From contig SDNY01000089.1 in the NCBI GenBank assembly GCA_004524535.1, positions 1 through 15,113 on the forward strand: DNA of 15,113 nt, read 5' to 3'. The translations under genes were made by a program, and so were the position numbers. Position 1 is the first letter of the stretch. Each line of letters opens with the position of its first letter. Shown in pieces: positions 2,718 through 8,572 of this stretch. This DNA is from Promethearchaeota archaeon (GTDB lineage: Archaea; Asgardarchaeota; Lokiarchaeia; Sigyniarchaeales; SOKP01). Under the pieces are notes generated by a model. That model was not told where the DNA came from. It saw nothing but the letters and a program-made list of their open reading frames with translations, and made no database searches.

Positions 2718-2849
2718 TAAAAAAGGGAGTTAATTGAATTCTTAAATTTACTCTAATATATTTAAAAGGATTTATTTAATTTCTTTAATTTATTAATCAA
2801 AATTACTTAAAATCAATTTGAAAATTACTAAAATGTGAGGTAATAGTAG

Positions 2850-3679
2850 ATGGTACAAATTTCAGGCGACTGGGGATTCAGAAATCGCCTCAATAGGATA
2901 ATCAAGCCTAAATCTGGACGATGTGTGATGTTAGCAATAGATCACGGCTATTTTGGAAACGTGCCCGGTCAATTAAAATGTTTTGAAGAGATGTCACCCC
3001 TATTTAAGTATGCCGATGCCTTGATGTTAACACGGGGAATGTTGAGAAATTGTGTCCCCTCAGAGGTTGAGGCCCCTATAGTATTAAGAGTCTCAGCAGG
3101 AGCAAGTATGTTAAAAGAACTTTCTAATGAGGAAATCAATGTAGCTGTGGATGATGCCATTAGATTAAATGTTTCAGCAATAACATGCTCAATATTTGTT
3201 GGAGGAGAATATGAAAAACAATCTCTCATGAACTTATCGAAACTAGTAAATTGGGGTCAGCAATATGGCATTCCAACGTTAGCCGTGACAGCGGTAGGGC
3301 GTGAAATGGTGAGGGATGCTCGTTATTTAGGTATGGCAAGTAGAATGGCTGCTGAAATGGGAGCAACTTTCGTGAAAACATATTATTGCGAGAATTTTGA
3401 GGAAGTTACAAGTATCTGTCCTGCGCCAATTGTTATTGCTGGCGGTAAAAAAATTCCTGAAAAAGACGCTTTACAAATGGCGAAAAATGCCGTCGATAAA
3501 GGTGCTGTCGGCGTAGACTATAGCTATTTAGCTTAGTTATAGGCGCAAATATGGGAAGAAATATCTTTCAATCTGATAGCCCGATTGGCATGATAAAAGC
3601 TGTACGAAGAATAGTCCATGAGAATGTCTCGGCTGATGAAGCATTCGAAATTTACAAGAATGGTCCAAAAGGATTATAA
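2850..3679 (+). CDS. lsrF: LsrF/DhnA-family class I aldolase/thiolase, split by a 32-nt intron: join(2850..3516,3549..3679), 265 aa
   Basis: Motifs [26 protein letters not shown]. The track ORF stops at TAG 3534-3536, but the missing C-terminus [24 protein letters not shown]...GPKGL* follows at 3551-3679 in another frame. SD-like GAGGT at 2838-2842. Confidence 0.88.
3517..3548 (+). other. Putative archaeal BHB-type mRNA intron (32 nt)
   Basis: 4-bp central helix GCGU(3511-14)/GCGC(3543-46); 3-nt bulges AGA(3515-17) and AAA(3547-49); 9-bp intron stem CUAUAGCUA(3518-26)/UAGUUAUAG(3534-42) with a 7-nt loop. Cleavage after the 2nd base of each bulge gives GTA G|AT ATG = V-D-M. Confidence 0.85.
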
Positions 3680-3702
3680 TTTTTTTTTTCTATTTTTTTT
3701 TA
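3680..3702 (+). terminator. T-rich archaeal-type terminator after the spliced lsrF
   Basis: Long oligo-T runs directly after TAA 3679, consistent with 3679 being the real gene end. Confidence 0.5.
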
Positions 3703-3814
3703 TTATTATTATAATTTTCTTTTAAATATGATTTTCAAAGAATTTAATTTAATTACAAAAATTTCTGCTCTCCTTCTTTATAAATATATATGAAGTTATT
3801 AAATATATATTACA

Positions 3815-4948
3815 ATGGAAAAAAATAAATATTCAGCAACAAAATTAATAGAAGATTTAAGGAGAGAAATTTTTAAAATAATTCCAACTAGTTTTTTCAT
3901 TAATAATCTTAAAGTAAAAATGATTCGAAATGGAATTCTATCTGATAAAAAGTTAAGCCTTATCCTATGTGGTTATGAAGGTCGCCTTAAAAGGATTAAA
4001 AGGAATATTAGAGCTAATCCAGATTTTAAAATAGCTCAAGATGAATTAATGGATTGGAGCAATAGTATTAATGATTACTTCGGTTCTAAGAGTGACAAGA
4101 TAATTAATTTTATTAAGCAATATCGAGAATTAAACGAAAATTTGCCGATATCCAGAAAAAAAGGATTAAAAGTTTTAAATTATCATCCTAAATTAAAATT
4201 AGATTTTTTTGAAATAATTAATACAAAAGAAAAAGCATATTGGCTAGGACTAATATGGGCAGAAATATACCTAGGGAAAAGAGGTGAAATAAGCCTTGAA
4301 TTAAATAATAAAGATGAAATTCTAATAGATAGATATTGTAAAACCTTAGGTTTAAACCCAAAATATAAAAAATACCAAGTAAAAATGAGAAAAAAAAGTC
4401 CAAGAACATATGTTAGAATTAGATTTAAAAGCAGTAAAATTCAAAAGGATCTATACAAATTAGGGTATATAAAAAGCAGTAAAAAGTCTACAATATTTCC
4501 TAAATTAGATATTCGAGAATTAGATTTAGCGTTTCTACTTGGATTTTTCGATGGTGACGGAAAGGAAGGTACAAATACACTTCATATAGGTAGTAGGAAA
4601 ATTCTTGAACACATTAAGGAAAAATTTAATGTTCCTCATGAAATTCTGCCTGATAAGAAAGGATATTATTACTTTAGTCTAGGTGGAAAATTATTTAATG
4701 AAATGATGACAAATTATAGAAATAGCCTAGAAAGAAAAAGAAGATTCTTTAGAGTTCCAATTAAAGAAAAATTAAAAGAACTAATCTCAAGAGAAAAACT
4801 TAGAGAATTAGTATGGAAATTAACCCTCAAGGAAATAGCTGAAAGATATAATGCTTACCCAAGAGCCATTTCTGAATTATGTATTGAGTGGGGGATAAAA
4901 AGACCTCCTACTCATTATTGGCATCAAAATTTAAGTGAGCAAAAATAG
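3815..4948 (+). CDS. Free-standing double-motif LAGLIDADG homing-endonuclease-like protein with C-terminal HTH
   Basis: Motif 1 AYWLGLIWAEI (degenerate), motif 2 AFLLGFFDGDG; very Lys/Arg-rich; HTH-like tail LTLKEIAERYNAYPRAISELCIEWGIKRP. No intein splice residues or host-protein fusion seen. Confidence 0.85.
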   Translation: MEKNKYSATKLIEDLRREIFKIIPTSFFINNLKVKMIRNGILSDKKLSLILCGYEGRLKRIKRNIRANPDFKIAQDELMDWSNSINDYFGSKSDKIINFIKQYRELNENLPISRKKGLKVLNYHPKLKLDFFEIINTKEKAYWLGLIWAEIYLGKRGEISLELNNKDEILIDRYCKTLGLNPKYKKYQVKMRKKSPRTYVRIRFKSSKIQKDLYKLGYIKSSKKSTIFPKLDIRELDLAFLLGFFDGDGKEGTNTLHIGSRKILEHIKEKFNVPHEILPDKKGYYYFSLGGKLFNEMMTNYRNSLERKRRFFRVPIKEKLKELISREKLRELVWKLTLKEIAERYNAYPRAISELCIEWGIKRPPTHYWHQNLSEQK

Positions 4949-4992
4949 AATAATAAGTAAGGTTATTAACTTAATTAATATTTATGATTAGC

Positions 4993-5421
4993 TTACTTTT
5001 CAGATTCATTCCAATTTTTATATACAGATTTATGCTCATATTTTAAATAATGAATGATATCCAATATTCCACCAATAAATGACAATATACCAATTATAAT
5101 CCATATACTATCAGAAGTAAAGTAAAACAAGATTATGTATAAAAAATTGTAGAAAATCCCTATGAACCAAGGATTAAAAGAACCCATATATCTACCATAA
5201 GGTCGTATCCCTATATAAGAATAATAAATAGTTGTTCCATATACAAAGTAGAACATTATAATTACAATTAAGAAATACAGAGAATTTGACATTACGATAT
5301 AGTAGTAACCCCGAATTGTTATTAAAACTAACACTATTAGAAATAGAACACAAATAATATATGAAAATATTGTATTCCTTTCCTTTAAATCTCTTAATCT
5401 GATTGGTTTATTGTTTTTCAT
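4993..5421 (-). CDS. Hypothetical membrane protein (about 4 TM segments)
   Basis: 142-aa ORF with ATG start and four hydrophobic, Tyr/Ile-rich stretches; fills the gap convergent with the LAGLIDADG gene; no family recognised. Confidence 0.6.
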   Translation of the reverse strand: MKNNKPIRLRDLKERNTIFSYIICVLFLIVLVLITIRGYYYIVMSNSLYFLIVIIMFYFVYGTTIYYSYIGIRPYGRYMGSFNPWFIGIFYNFLYIILFYFTSDSIWIIIGILSFIGGILDIIHYLKYEHKSVYKNWNESEK

Positions 5422-5520
5422 TGAAAGTGGATTTTTAATTATGAAAAATTAATTCAAGAAAATTATTATTCTTATTTTTTTAATAAAATTATGTTTTTCA
5501 GAGTAATTATTGATTGGTAT

Positions 5521-5637
5521 ATTTTTCAATCAGATAAACCAATTGGAATGATTAAAGCTGTTAGAGCAATTGTGCATGAAAATGCTTCGGTGGATGAAGC
5601 TTACGAAATATATCAGAGTGGTCCAGTAGGATTGTGA
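5521..5637 (+). pseudogene. Orphan duplicate of the lsrF 3' end (38 codons + stop)
   Basis: Translates to [38 protein letters not shown], 30/38 aa identical to 3563-3679; similarity to lsrF stops at about 5519. Confidence 0.92.
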
Positions 5638-5644
5638 AATAGCC

Positions 5645-5682
5645 TTTATTTTTTCTTTTTTCTTATTATTTTATTTTTATTT
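5645..5682 (+). terminator. T-rich terminator-like tract after the orphan lsrF 3' end
   Basis: Repeated oligo-T runs after TGA 5637. Confidence 0.4.
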
Positions 5683-5744
5683 GGTTAATTTAATAAATCT
5701 TAATTTATTTTTTTCTACAATACACATATTAAGAATATATTACA

Positions 5745-6722
5745 ATGGAAATACCTAAGATAAAGAATCTCGAAATTAAAGAAGTTATAAAAGATAATAT
5801 CTTAATAGCGCATCAGAATAAGGTGCCTAGTGATTTTTCTTGCTGTGATGGATTAATCATTTTACCTAGAAAAGGGCGAAATTCTGAGACTGTTATTCTT
5901 GATTTGAATATTCAACCTAAATATTCAATAGAACTCTATAAGGATATTGGTCCTATTTTAAATTATGTCTGTACTCATGGGCACTTGGATCACATGGCTC
6001 ATGTATATGGATGGGAAGCATTAGAGGCAACTATCCACGCACCTAATCCTGAAGCAAATTATCTACTTGATTTAAAAAATTTTCATAAAGATAATTTCGA
6101 TGCGAGAGTGAGTTTTAGCGATGTTAAAAAATTTGCTGAATTAAATGAATATTTTACCTGCAATAATGTGGAAGCATTTGAACCAGGAGATACATTAAAA
6201 TTTGAAAATTTGATTATAGAAACGATTCCATTTCCGGGACATGGCAATGGGCATGTTGGCCTTTATATTCCTTCCGAAAAAGTATTACATATAAGTTGTA
6301 TGGGATTTGACCAACCTGAACCGGGAATCGATGGATTTGGTCCATGGTATGGTTTTCAAGATTGTTCAATTGAACAATATTTAGAGGATATTGATAAAGC
6401 AGAGAAACTTTTCCTTGAAAAAGCTAAATTTTTAACTTCTAGTCATGGCTACATTGTGAAAAATCCAGATAAAACACCCTTTGAATATATGAGGAGAAAA
6501 TTAAAAGAACGGCAAAACTTAGTCAATATGGCAGCAATAAAGTCAGAATTAAGTTTAAATTTAGAGGAAAGTGTAAATCTCTTATTAGAACAAGACTTAA
6601 TTTTTCAAAAAAAGAAAATGAAATCCTTTCTTAAGAAGATATATACTTTTTGGGAATATTGGATAATTAAAAAGCATCTTCAACATACTTATAAAACCTT
6701 AGAAATAGAAGAACAAGATTAA
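5745..6722 (+). CDS. Metallo-beta-lactamase-fold hydrolase
   Basis: HxHxDH motif (THGHLDHM), PGHGNGH and SSHG; 325 aa. Confidence 0.9.
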   Translation: MEIPKIKNLEIKEVIKDNILIAHQNKVPSDFSCCDGLIILPRKGRNSETVILDLNIQPKYSIELYKDIGPILNYVCTHGHLDHMAHVYGWEALEATIHAPNPEANYLLDLKNFHKDNFDARVSFSDVKKFAELNEYFTCNNVEAFEPGDTLKFENLIIETIPFPGHGNGHVGLYIPSEKVLHISCMGFDQPEPGIDGFGPWYGFQDCSIEQYLEDIDKAEKLFLEKAKFLTSSHGYIVKNPDKTPFEYMRRKLKERQNLVNMAAIKSELSLNLEESVNLLLEQDLIFQKKKMKSFLKKIYTFWEYWIIKKHLQHTYKTLEIEEQD

Positions 6723-6847: not shown

Positions 6848-8572
6848 TCATTATCTTTCTATAAATCTTTAATTTATGATACTATTGAGATTTATATATA
6901 TTTATTTCTTAAATATAGAAAAAGCTGTTTATTATGGAGAAATTGAATAGATATAATCTTAATAAAATAAAAGAATTAGTTGAGGATTTGAGTATAAGGA
7001 AATCCGGAATAAAAGGTGTAATTTTAAATCCGAAAAATGAAGAAGAATTCAAAAATTTAAAAAATATTTCCGGTCAAATTCCAAGCAAAACTAAGATTAA
7101 AGTAAAATGTGGTGTTCCAGAACATCCGGCGTGGATAACAACAGCAGATCGCTTGCAACAAGGACATTGGTGTAAGGTTTGTGCGTATAATATTTTTACA
7201 TTTGAAAAAGCAAAAAAATTAGTTAAAAAACTTGGTCTCAAAAAATATGGAATTGAAGGACAAATAATTAAACCAGAAAATTCTTTAGAATTCATTAAAT
7301 TAACTGGAACATATCAACCTAGTTATGTACCATTGTTAGTCTCTTGCGGAATTTCAAATCACCAAAATTGGATCACAAATGGGAGAGCTTTATCTAGAGG
7401 TAATTGGTGTAGAGAATGTTATATAGAAAGTATGAAATTAACATTTAATGATATTAAGAATATAGTCAAGGATGCAGGTCGTAATAAAATTGGTAAAGAT
7501 GGTATTTTGCTTGAACCTATTAATCTGCAAGATTTTGAAAAACTAAAGATAGCTCCTAGTAAAATCCCTTTAAAGATTAAATGTGGAGTTCCAGAACATC
7601 CAGAATGGATTACTGATGCTTCCCATTTAATAAGAGGTAATTGGTGCAAATTTTGTGCTCAAAATATTTTTACTTATAAATCTATAAAGAATTTAGTAAA
7701 AGATGTTGGATTAAAAAAGTCTGGTGTAAAAGGACATCTTATTAAACCAAGATAGAATTTAAAAAAATAAATAAAAATATTAAACCTAGTGAAATTCAAT
7801 TATTAGTTAAATGTGGAATTGTGGATCATGGAACTTGGAATACAAATGCGCATCGATTACAACAAGGATATTGGTGTTCAGTTTGTTCTCAAGGTGAAAA
7901 TGAACAGATATGTCGTTGGTATTTTGAACAAATTTTTAATAAATCCTTTCCAAAAACTCAATTAAGTAAGGTAATTAGAATAGTAAATGAAAAAATGTAT
8001 AATGAAACAGAACTAGATATATTAAACAGATTAATTAAATATGGTCATTTTGATGGATATGCTGAATTAAAATTAAATAGAAAATCAATAAAATTAGCTT
8101 TTGAATATAATGGCCCTCAACATTATAGATTTCCCAATCATGTACATAAAACCAAGGAGAAATTCAATTATCAAAGATTTCTTGATCAAATGAAGCAAAA
8201 AGTATGTGATGCAGAAGAAAATAAAATAGTTCTAATAGTATTCCCGTTTTTTATTGACGAAAGGATGGATAATCCAGAAATTATTCAAAATTACATAGTA
8301 AAGGAATTCAATATTAAAACCGGTATCGATTTAGTCGATTTACCAAAATTTAATCATAAAACATACGTTTTTGGTCAATATAAGCTAGATAAATATCTCA
8401 AATGATAAATTTCTAAAAAATATTAATTGAATTTAGATAATTTTCATCCCATTTCAAAATCAATTATTACTTTTAATGAATTATCAGCATCACATACAGT
8501 ATTGAATGCTTCTTGTACTTTCTCAATTGAATAGCGATGGGATATTAAATTAACAATAGATAATTTCTTGGA
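6848..8572. mobile_element. Putative endonuclease cassette 2: replacement dehydrogenase 3' end + Zn-ribbon/Vsr-like nuclease gene
   Basis: Bounded by two diverged copies of the dehydrogenase 3' end (8444-8572 and 6719-6847), both starting with TCCAAGAAATT on the minus strand. The right boundary is uncertain. Confidence 0.62.
6934..8405 (+). pseudogene. Zn-ribbon-repeat protein with C-terminal Vsr/DUF559-like PD-(D/E)XK endonuclease domain, frameshifted near 7753
   Basis: Track ORFs 6934-7755 and 7821-8405 are one gene: four CGxxxHxxW...GxWCxxC repeats, then E(QICR)...FDGY...LAFEYNGPQHY...DQMKQKVC...LIVFPF. The second frame is open from 7755 (EFKKINKNIKPSEIQLLVKCG). Confidence 0.8.

Follow-up and report, generated by a model that had tools for sequence, protein, structure and literature searches.

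Organization of the lsrF locus

We analysed a stretch of 15,113 nt (the window), which is the whole of contig C16 from a Promethearchaeota (Asgard) genome, denoted G000, and which carries an lsrF-like aldolase/thiolase gene with two different 3′ ends. The first of these, denoted A, is joined to the body of lsrF across a 32-nt insert with a fold like that of a bulge–helix–bulge (BHB) intron, and is followed by a copy of the spacer that separates lsrF from the next gene, which has a metallo-beta-lactamase fold (MBL), and by a free-standing gene for a LAGLIDADG endonuclease; the second, denoted B, lies stranded further downstream (Table 1). In our reading the locus would be a homing-type mobile element seated in lsrF, in which a BHB intron is combined with a replacement 3′ exon, a spacer copy and a free-standing LAGLIDADG gene, a reading to which we give a probability of roughly 0.7.

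The lsrF body (2850–3518) matches the LsrF thiolase model NF006081 of NCBIfam with 327.9 bits (cut-off 297) and also PF01791. A and B are identical at 30 of 38 residues (tblastn E ∼1e-17 to 1e-18), and B retains an open frame with a TGA stop. At the DNA level both belong to a direct repeat (3561–3701 and 5519–5659, 74% nt identity) which extends via the spacer to both start codons, where 3797–3828 and 5727–5758 are 84% identical. No convincing terminal inverted repeat was found in the window, all arms being AT-rich and at most 88% complementary, none of the window open reading frames (ORFs) scanned matched an integrase or transposase, and no Rfam family was found in the window, where the insert, with only 32 nt, does not qualify as a group I intron. 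An earlier reading made from the letters alone (the sequence-only reading) had listed lsrF, A, the LAGLIDADG ORF, a membrane-like ORF and B at the same positions, with the same A/B identity and the same intact frame and stop of B, and had seen neither integrase or transposase nor terminal inverted repeats, and we found all of this again. Its account of the cassette was incomplete in that the 32-nt intron, the spacer copy and the MBL-like start had been left out.

Table 1. Features of the lsrF locus, with positions in the window
Feature	Position	Strand	Remarks
lsrF-like aldolase/thiolase exon 1	2850–3516	+	Resident and G008-like to ∼3502–3506; 3507–3516 is co-converted donor sequence
Predicted BHB-type (HBh′) intron, 32 nt	3517–3548	+	Fold, covariation, restored frame
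lsrF exon 2, imported 3′ end A (MGRNIFQ...KGL*)	3549–3679	+	Part first listed as A: 3563–3679
Imported lsrF–MBL spacer copy	3680–3814	+	Alignment, repeats; places an MBL-like promoter/start context ahead of the LAGLIDADG ORF
Free-standing two-motif LAGLIDADG endonuclease gene (predicted), 377 aa	3815–4948	+	Motifs, profile, fold
Orphan membrane-like ORF, 142 aa	4993–5421	-	Within the cassette; gene status uncertain
Cassette right end, AT-rich spacer	5422–5520		Only low-complexity matches; right junction 5520/5521
Stranded resident lsrF 3′ end B	5521–5637	+	Without the first 12 nt past the intron site; joined to no exon
Resident spacer and MBL gene	5638–6722	+	PF00753; next after lsrF in the ancestral order
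Whole replaced segment, 2014 nt	3507–5520	+	24 nt spanning the intron site in empty alleles

Replacement of the 3′ end of lsrF

At lsrF the closest relative of G000 is genome G008, in which the gene is contiguous and without the insert. The body of the G000 gene is 98% identical to that of G008 in amino acids and agrees at 605 of 636 nt (95.1%), and the end of the G008 protein is identical to B at 38 of 39 positions (stop codon counted). In nucleotides, B agrees with the G008 3′ end at 110/114 positions (96.5%), and A at only 83/114 (72.8%). In separate trees the G000 body was sister to G008 and B was sister to the G008 3′ end (SH-aLRT 99 each), and A was placed elsewhere. Across 18 genomes no 3′ end came closer to A than 93/114 nt (81.6%), and no close donor of A was found among them; a metagenome scan gave one contig (1.46 kb), which carries a 73%-identical endonuclease.

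Contigs of sediment metagenomes from other studies (X2, X3 and X4) were aligned to the window, and the empty allele was present in each of them, passing from 3506 to 5521 in X3 and X4 and from 3502 to 5521 in X2, with 24–28 letters between. One of these contigs, record 28 of X4, continues through the spacer to the start of the MBL gene. The filled allele was also found, in a 1150-nt contig of X3 (record 19) which covers 3395–4549 with ∼94% identity; X3 holds both alleles. Compared with the empty alleles, the 2014-nt segment of the window stands in place of 24 ancestral nt, the midpoint of which falls within 2 nt of the intron site. On the left, G008-like sequence gives way to foreign sequence 10–13 nt upstream of the 5′ splice site, so that the exon bases pairing with the intron were imported as well, and on the right B begins 12–13 nt downstream of the intron site. 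That the 3′ end of lsrF was replaced is hardly open to doubt.

The sequence-only reading had proposed that a cassette recombined into lsrF, brought a new 3′ end and stranded the original one. Stranding of the original end agrees with the likeness of B to G008 and with its contiguity with the body in the empty alleles of all three metagenomes, and the two comparisons which that reading had suggested, with cassette-free relatives and by separate trees, came out as it expected: lsrF ends like B where the cassette is absent (G008 and X2–X4), in one case with the MBL start in reach. The arrival of a new 3′ end stands as well, with the amendment that A is not in frame with the body and lies behind the 32-nt insert.

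Two 3′ ends could also be produced by an assembly chimera of two strains or be the remains of a complete second lsrF paralogue, both of which the sequence-only reading had named as refutations. G000 is a metagenome-assembled genome of 3.66 Mb in 198 contigs with 4.4% estimated contamination, and empty and filled alleles coexist in X3, points which would favour such an explanation. However, in the probable source run a single 10,944-nt Logan contig from another assembler covers 2800–5800 with 0 differences and an even depth of 53, which supports contiguity, and the filled allele recurs in the sample of another study (X3 record 19). Moreover, the same architecture is shared by genomes G052, G110 and G141 of other genera, no trace of a second body was seen, and the remnants of the native end start at the intron site (see below). 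We therefore regard a chimera or a decayed paralogue as extremely improbable.

A 32-nt insert with a BHB-like fold

Uninterrupted orthologues read GVDMGRNIFQ at this point, and in the window 32 extra nt stand between GVD and MGRN. The insert contains stops in the frame of exon 1 and shifts the frame by 2, so that the body and A lie in different frames, the body frame ending at the stop 3534–3536 and the frame of A running over 3524–3679. In the predicted RNA fold a central 4-bp helix (3511–3514/3543–3546) is followed by the bulge AGA (3515–3517) and an inner 9-bp stem (3518–3526/3534–3542), and on the 3′ side by AAA (3547–3549). Conservation extends to the central helix, the inner stem and the 3-nt bulge on the 5′ side, and the 3′ bulge AAA has no clear outer helix; the fold is the relaxed HBh′ form of the archaeal BHB core. 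BHB motifs are cut after the second nucleotide of each bulge, a rule which we checked against the geometry of tRNA 37/38 and against the rpoA′ and moxR junctions described below. By this rule, excision of 3517–3548 joins GTAG/ATATGG and restores GVD/MGRN, giving a protein of 265 aa, the length of the G008 open frame.

An insert at the identical site was found in 5 of 19 orthologous loci (G000, G005, G002, G022 and G011) and in 5 of 43 named Promethearchaeota loci, a set overlapping the first, and it is present in all four lsrF genes that adjoin a close homologue of the endonuclease. In an alignment of 11 distinct insert-bearing sequences and 13 pairs, 96.5% of the cells were paired, compared with 26–43% when the partners were slid; compensatory changes affected both partners in five pairs (13 cells), and the covariation score was reached by none of 500 shuffles. 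One covarying pair is formed by the wobble base of an exon glycine codon and an intron base (CG in 7 sequences, AU in 2, UA in 2). All 11 insert-bearing genes retain an intact exon 2, with a pooled pN/pS of 0.17 at a pS of 0.63, and because of this purifying selection exon 2 appears to be translated, though it lies behind stops and in another frame. The genome also encodes the enzymes that splicing would need, namely two EndA-family ORFs of ∼200 aa (PF01974; 107.9 and 70.7 bits) and one RtcB ligase (561 bits). The EndA genes are located at C100:31106 and C84:30615. The available sections of PMC5829648, from which the name HBh′ for relaxed BHB motifs is taken, describe Asgard EndA as a broad-specificity (αβ)2 type with an L1 loop.

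If the insert were instead retained, lsrF would be a truncated pseudogene of 228 aa, or its ribosomes would have to frameshift or bypass the insert. The lack of the canonical outer helix would fit such a gene, but the intact exon 2 and its low pN/pS, the covarying helices, and the exon-1-frame stops combined with a frame shift of 2 all argue the other way, as do the like inserts that break the essential rpoA′ gene at a junction restoring exact Pfam continuity. Retention is in our view very unlikely, and removal of the insert from lsrF mRNA as an intron is, from this evidence, highly probable.

A LAGLIDADG endonuclease tied to lsrF

The ORF behind the spacer copy contains the motifs YWLGLIWAEIYLG and LAFLLGFFDGDG (WLGLIWAEI with E150, and LLGFFDGDG with D248), with an acidic residue at position 8 in both, and both motifs are conserved columns in 14 homologues. 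Searches with the single sequence gave no useful match in Pfam (at 0.01) or NCBIfam, and phmmer against the PDB gave only chance matches to prolyl hydroxylases. A profile of the 14 homologues, on the other hand, matched I-Tsp061I (2dch) and an I-DmoI/I-CreI chimera (1mow) over both motifs with E 0.005, and 14 of 14 family members matched PF14528 at E≤1 (best 1.8e-8). An AlphaFold2 (AF2) model had a pLDDT of 88.1, and the top Foldseek matches were I-Tsp061I, I-AniI, I-SceI and I-DmoI (probability 1.00, TM by target 0.44–0.56). The model has additional N- and C-terminal helical regions, the C-terminal one resembling a helix-turn-helix by eye. From motifs, profile and model the protein is assigned to the LAGLIDADG homing endonuclease family, with predicted activity and target.

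Matches to this family occur in 75 of 133 other genomes of the archaeal family, and adjacency to lsrF is confined to the closest of them: at 53–64% identity four of five homologues adjoin lsrF (G052, G104, G141 and G110, from three other genera), compared with 0 of 25 at ≤43% identity. In G052, G141 and G110 the order is that of the window, i.e. the body, an insert of 30–32 nt, a 3′ exon, the endonuclease gene and a second lsrF 3′ end, after which G110 has the MBL gene. The sequence-only reading had described one event; replacement at lsrF holds, and several related events appear to have taken place within the family rather than a single one. Measured from the intron site, the remnants start at ∼0 (G052), +13 (G000), +39 (G141) and +72 nt (G110), and each extends as far as the native end. 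Such nested remnants are the pattern expected from resection at a break at the intron site, and later decay could also give them. Considering adjacency and junctions together, we find it reasonably likely that the endonuclease is the driver of the element and targets the intron site.

The sole paralogue of the endonuclease in G000 (L002; C26 40175–44248) is 38% identical to it and has as neighbours an unrelated membrane ORF and an ORF that resembles a Dam-like DNA methyltransferase by eye (FDPPY motif). Many other homologues form the C-terminal part of much longer frames of up to 1239 aa, after recurring N-terminal regions (L040, L044, L047, L053, L054, L056, L059 and L061); they could have arisen by in-frame invasion at the 3′ ends of genes, or else be genuine multi-domain proteins.

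A homing model for the element

In the mechanism that we propose, the LAGLIDADG enzyme would cut an intron-less lsrF at or near the conserved intron site that encodes GVDMGRN, and the break would be repaired from an element-bearing allele. On the left side repair would use homology within ∼10–13 nt of the site, and on the right side it would run through the endonuclease gene and end either by non-homologous joining to a slightly resected end or by pairing with the donor's own remnant, in which case the duplicated 3′ end would be the right homology arm of the element. EndA-family enzymes and RtcB would excise the intron from the mRNA, leaving LsrF functional, and the replacement 3′ exon would keep the protein complete. 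The host allele would be immune because the intron splits the target. In an earlier step, a donor would have acquired the endonuclease gene at its MBL start. The membrane-like ORF of the cassette is regarded here as an orphan of uncertain status.

Several points weigh against this model. For the endonuclease, the first motif reads AEI rather than ADG, and the protein of the window itself is sub-threshold against PF14528 (E 0.43). For the intron, the closing outer helix is missing and an endonuclease of broad specificity would be needed, and splicing is something that we infer from sequence. For their association, at least four genomes (G005, G002, G022 and G011) have the intron without a nearby endonuclease gene, as short conversion tracts or loss of the endonuclease gene would leave them; G104 has this gene in inverted orientation, with no remnant seen; and the metagenome contig with the 73%-identical endonuclease (L154) carries this gene directly before the lsrF–MBL spacer and the MBL start, without a remnant. 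The spacer copy with its MBL-like start, moreover, suggests that the gene landed first at the MBL start and not at the intron site. With regard to sampling, the related genomes are not independent samples, and the contig covering the entire region belongs to the probable source run and is not independent data, though it bears no sign of a chimera.

Some of the same points would suit another explanation, namely ordinary horizontal transfer with illegitimate recombination, in which the LAGLIDADG gene would be a passenger or would target the spacer or the MBL start, and the closeness of the junctions to the intron would be a coincidence or a result of homology flanking the intron. The MBL-like start on the A side is fused to the endonuclease ORF, the gene of L154 is placed directly before the MBL spacer, and in many relatives the lsrF–MBL spacer measures 0.7–1.7 kb, suggesting a general insertion hot spot. 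Against transfer alone, only the closest endonuclease clade is tied to lsrF and each lsrF so adjoined has an intron at the same site (site 3), and the replaced 24 nt are centred on this site to within 2 nt, with remnants nested from there. We consider this explanation unlikely and prefer the homing element.

BHB-type inserts at other sites and genes

Inserts of 30–36 nt of BHB type were also observed in other relatives at two further sites of lsrF, site 1 (after GATCATGG) and site 2 (after GCAGGxGG). The site 1 insert occurs in G023, G016, G011 and L096 (loci L017, L018, L020 and L096), and the site 2 insert in G011 and, less clearly, in G010 (loci L019 and L020); the lsrF gene of G011 has inserts at all three sites. 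By eye, site 2 of G010 (L019) gave no clean fit to the BHB rule, and a 30-nt insertion in L100 was rejected as an intron, as it looks like a tandem duplication.

G000 was further scanned genome-wide for BHB motifs whose excision fuses two open frames, and the lsrF insert was recovered. A loose first scan gave 123 candidates, mostly AT-rich and unverified; three that passed a stricter filter were checked, and nothing is claimed for the others. The first is a 30-nt BHB-type insert in rpoA′, the gene of RNA polymerase subunit A′ (C17 309–338, minus strand; L151), at ...CMGHFGH/IELARPV.... Its exons match positions 34–73 and 74–153 of Pfam RNA_pol_Rpb1_1, with the predicted junction at 73/74. Of 29 related genomes three carry the insert (G000, G010 and G006), its central helix covarying among GGUC/GGCU, GGGC/GCCC and GGAC/GUCU. 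The second is a 29-nt BHB-type insert in a gene for a MoxR-type AAA ATPase (C26 5940–5968, minus strand; L152), where the exons match AAA_3 over 1–88 and 89–131 with the predicted junction at 88/89. The third, a 30-nt insert with a 10-bp stem in a gene of the Prismane/CO-dehydrogenase family (C100 12004–12033, minus strand; L150), lies between open frames of 73 and 713 codons with Fe-S motifs downstream; a Pfam match was found in exon 2 only, and this insert is less certain because the upstream part has none.

Taking these cases together, we tentatively suggest, at somewhat under even odds, that BHB mini-introns are common and mobile in protein genes of Promethearchaeota, and that a free-standing LAGLIDADG endonuclease and at least one of these introns together make up a two-part homing element, in which the intron would protect the host allele and the enzyme would spread the intron, the replacement exon and its own gene across genera.

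Relation to known systems

The comparisons of this section refer to the available sections of the papers cited. Mobile ORFs (mORFs) with C-terminal replacement are described from fungal mitochondria, in atp6 of Allomyces macrogynus and in atp6, atp9, cox2 and nad3 of Glomus (PMC3630166), and in Glomus the native 3′ end has 91–98% identity compared with 64–81% for the inserted copy (PMC3630166). As in the window, a LAGLIDADG gene arrives with a foreign 3′ end of the host gene, and the native end is stranded downstream and near-identical to the closest relative; the parallel figures here are 96.5% (native) and 72.8% (inserted). In contrast to the mORFs, the element studied here lies in a metabolic gene of an archaeal chromosome, its new 3′ end is out of phase (stop 3534–3536, +2 shift) behind a 32-nt BHB intron, and its endonuclease ORF stands apart, 135 nt further downstream and with a start codon of its own, whereas an mORF is in phase with the host gene.

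A second relative is collaborative homing, the original paper on which is said to be that of Zeng, Bonocora and Shub from 2009. In cyanophage S-PM2 the free-standing F-CphI lies beside an intron-containing psbA gene, the intron protects against self-cleavage, and the enzyme attacks alleles lacking it at the insertion site (PMC6083498). Both systems have an intron without an ORF in the host gene and an adjacent free-standing endonuclease gene. They differ in the intron, which is a 32-nt, predicted protein-spliced BHB intron here and a self-splicing group I intron in the phage; in the enzyme, which is of LAGLIDADG type here and Endo VII-like in the phage; and in the cleavage specificity, which is described for the phage and is deduced from junction geometry here. 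Moreover, the archaeal element has a replacement exon and a stranded remnant in addition. From these comparisons the element may best be read as combining features of the fungal mORFs and of the collaborative homing of cyanophages.

With regard to the intron itself, the cbf5 pre-mRNA of Crenarchaeota contains BHB-type introns of 16–44 bp, which are removed by a hetero-oligomeric splicing endonuclease and are given as the only confirmed archaeal mRNA introns in the part of the source at hand (PMC2738675). The inserts described here are likewise short BHB introns of a protein gene, too short for a nuclease ORF and present or absent according to lineage. They differ in that they occur in Asgard archaea (Promethearchaeota) at several genes and sites (three in lsrF, rpoA′, moxR and the Prismane/CO-dehydrogenase-family gene), and in the physical linkage of one of these sites to an endonuclease gene, which the available sections do not report for cbf5. 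Archaeal rRNA introns of BHB type encode LAGLIDADG enzymes, e.g. I-DmoI and I-Tsp061I (PMC2738675). They share with the lsrF element the association of a BHB intron with a single-chain LAGLIDADG homing endonuclease, but there the gene lies inside a long rRNA intron, and here it lies outside an mRNA mini-intron, downstream of the stop codon of the host gene.

We found no description in the literature of BHB introns in Asgard protein-coding genes and none of an endonuclease-driven 3′-end replacement in an archaeal chromosome, although in both cases supplements might list cases. In a 2026 preprint on Asgard tRNA introns, a text find for 'mRNA', 'homing' and 'LAGLIDADG' gave no occurrence.

If our reading holds, homing elements and tRNA-type introns would act on archaeal protein-coding genes as well, and Asgard archaea would routinely splice mRNAs by the tRNA-splicing machinery. 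Such genes, that of RNA polymerase subunit A′ among them, would be mis-annotated systematically by gene callers and appear truncated or split. Homing with immunity conferred by the intron would be a testable route for movement of introns between lineages, and homing at the DNA level would provide an entry route of protein-spliced introns to mRNAs in the closest archaeal relatives of eukaryotes. The element would also offer a natural LAGLIDADG enzyme with a predicted target of 24 nt.

Other features of the cassette and its surroundings

The membrane-like ORF had no homologue in any of 133 other genomes of the family (0/133) and gave only a sub-threshold match to DUF2070, and other cassettes are too tight to hold it. 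A conserved two-gene cassette was considered and rejected, since the membrane ORF is unrelated to the one beside the LAGLIDADG paralogue on C26 and has no homologues in those genomes. The right part of the cassette (4949–5520) gave no match elsewhere in the G000 genome or in the compared loci. The 17 nt across the boundary between the insert and exon 2 (3548–3564) recur with 16 of 17 positions at 4252–4268, where they encode the first LAGLIDADG motif of the endonuclease; this match is probably due to chance.

Two tandem paralogues of EamA-family transporters lie upstream of lsrF (774–2717). In G008, EamA and lsrF lie ∼2.6 kb apart with other sequence between them and no MBL gene is found within 2 kb downstream, and because of both the G008 locus appears to be rearranged on both sides. 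The order lsrF–MBL–ADH is conserved in G005, G002, G003 and many others. The lsrF–MBL spacer varies from ∼40 nt to ∼1.7 kb in relatives (L068–L074, L086, L090, L104 and others), and that of L070 contains, on the opposite strand, a distant LAGLIDADG-like ORF (29% identity); this spacer looks like a recurrent insertion site.

Further downstream, the ORFs 6934–7755 and 7821–8405 resemble one gene split by a 1-nt frameshift near 7750. This segment has repeated zinc-ribbon-like modules (...KCGVPEHPxWIT...GxWCxxC), and its C-terminal part resembles a PD-(D/E)xK nuclease, by eye only. It sits between the MBL and ADH genes, which adjoin in G005, G002 and G003, and may be a second insertion of nuclease type.

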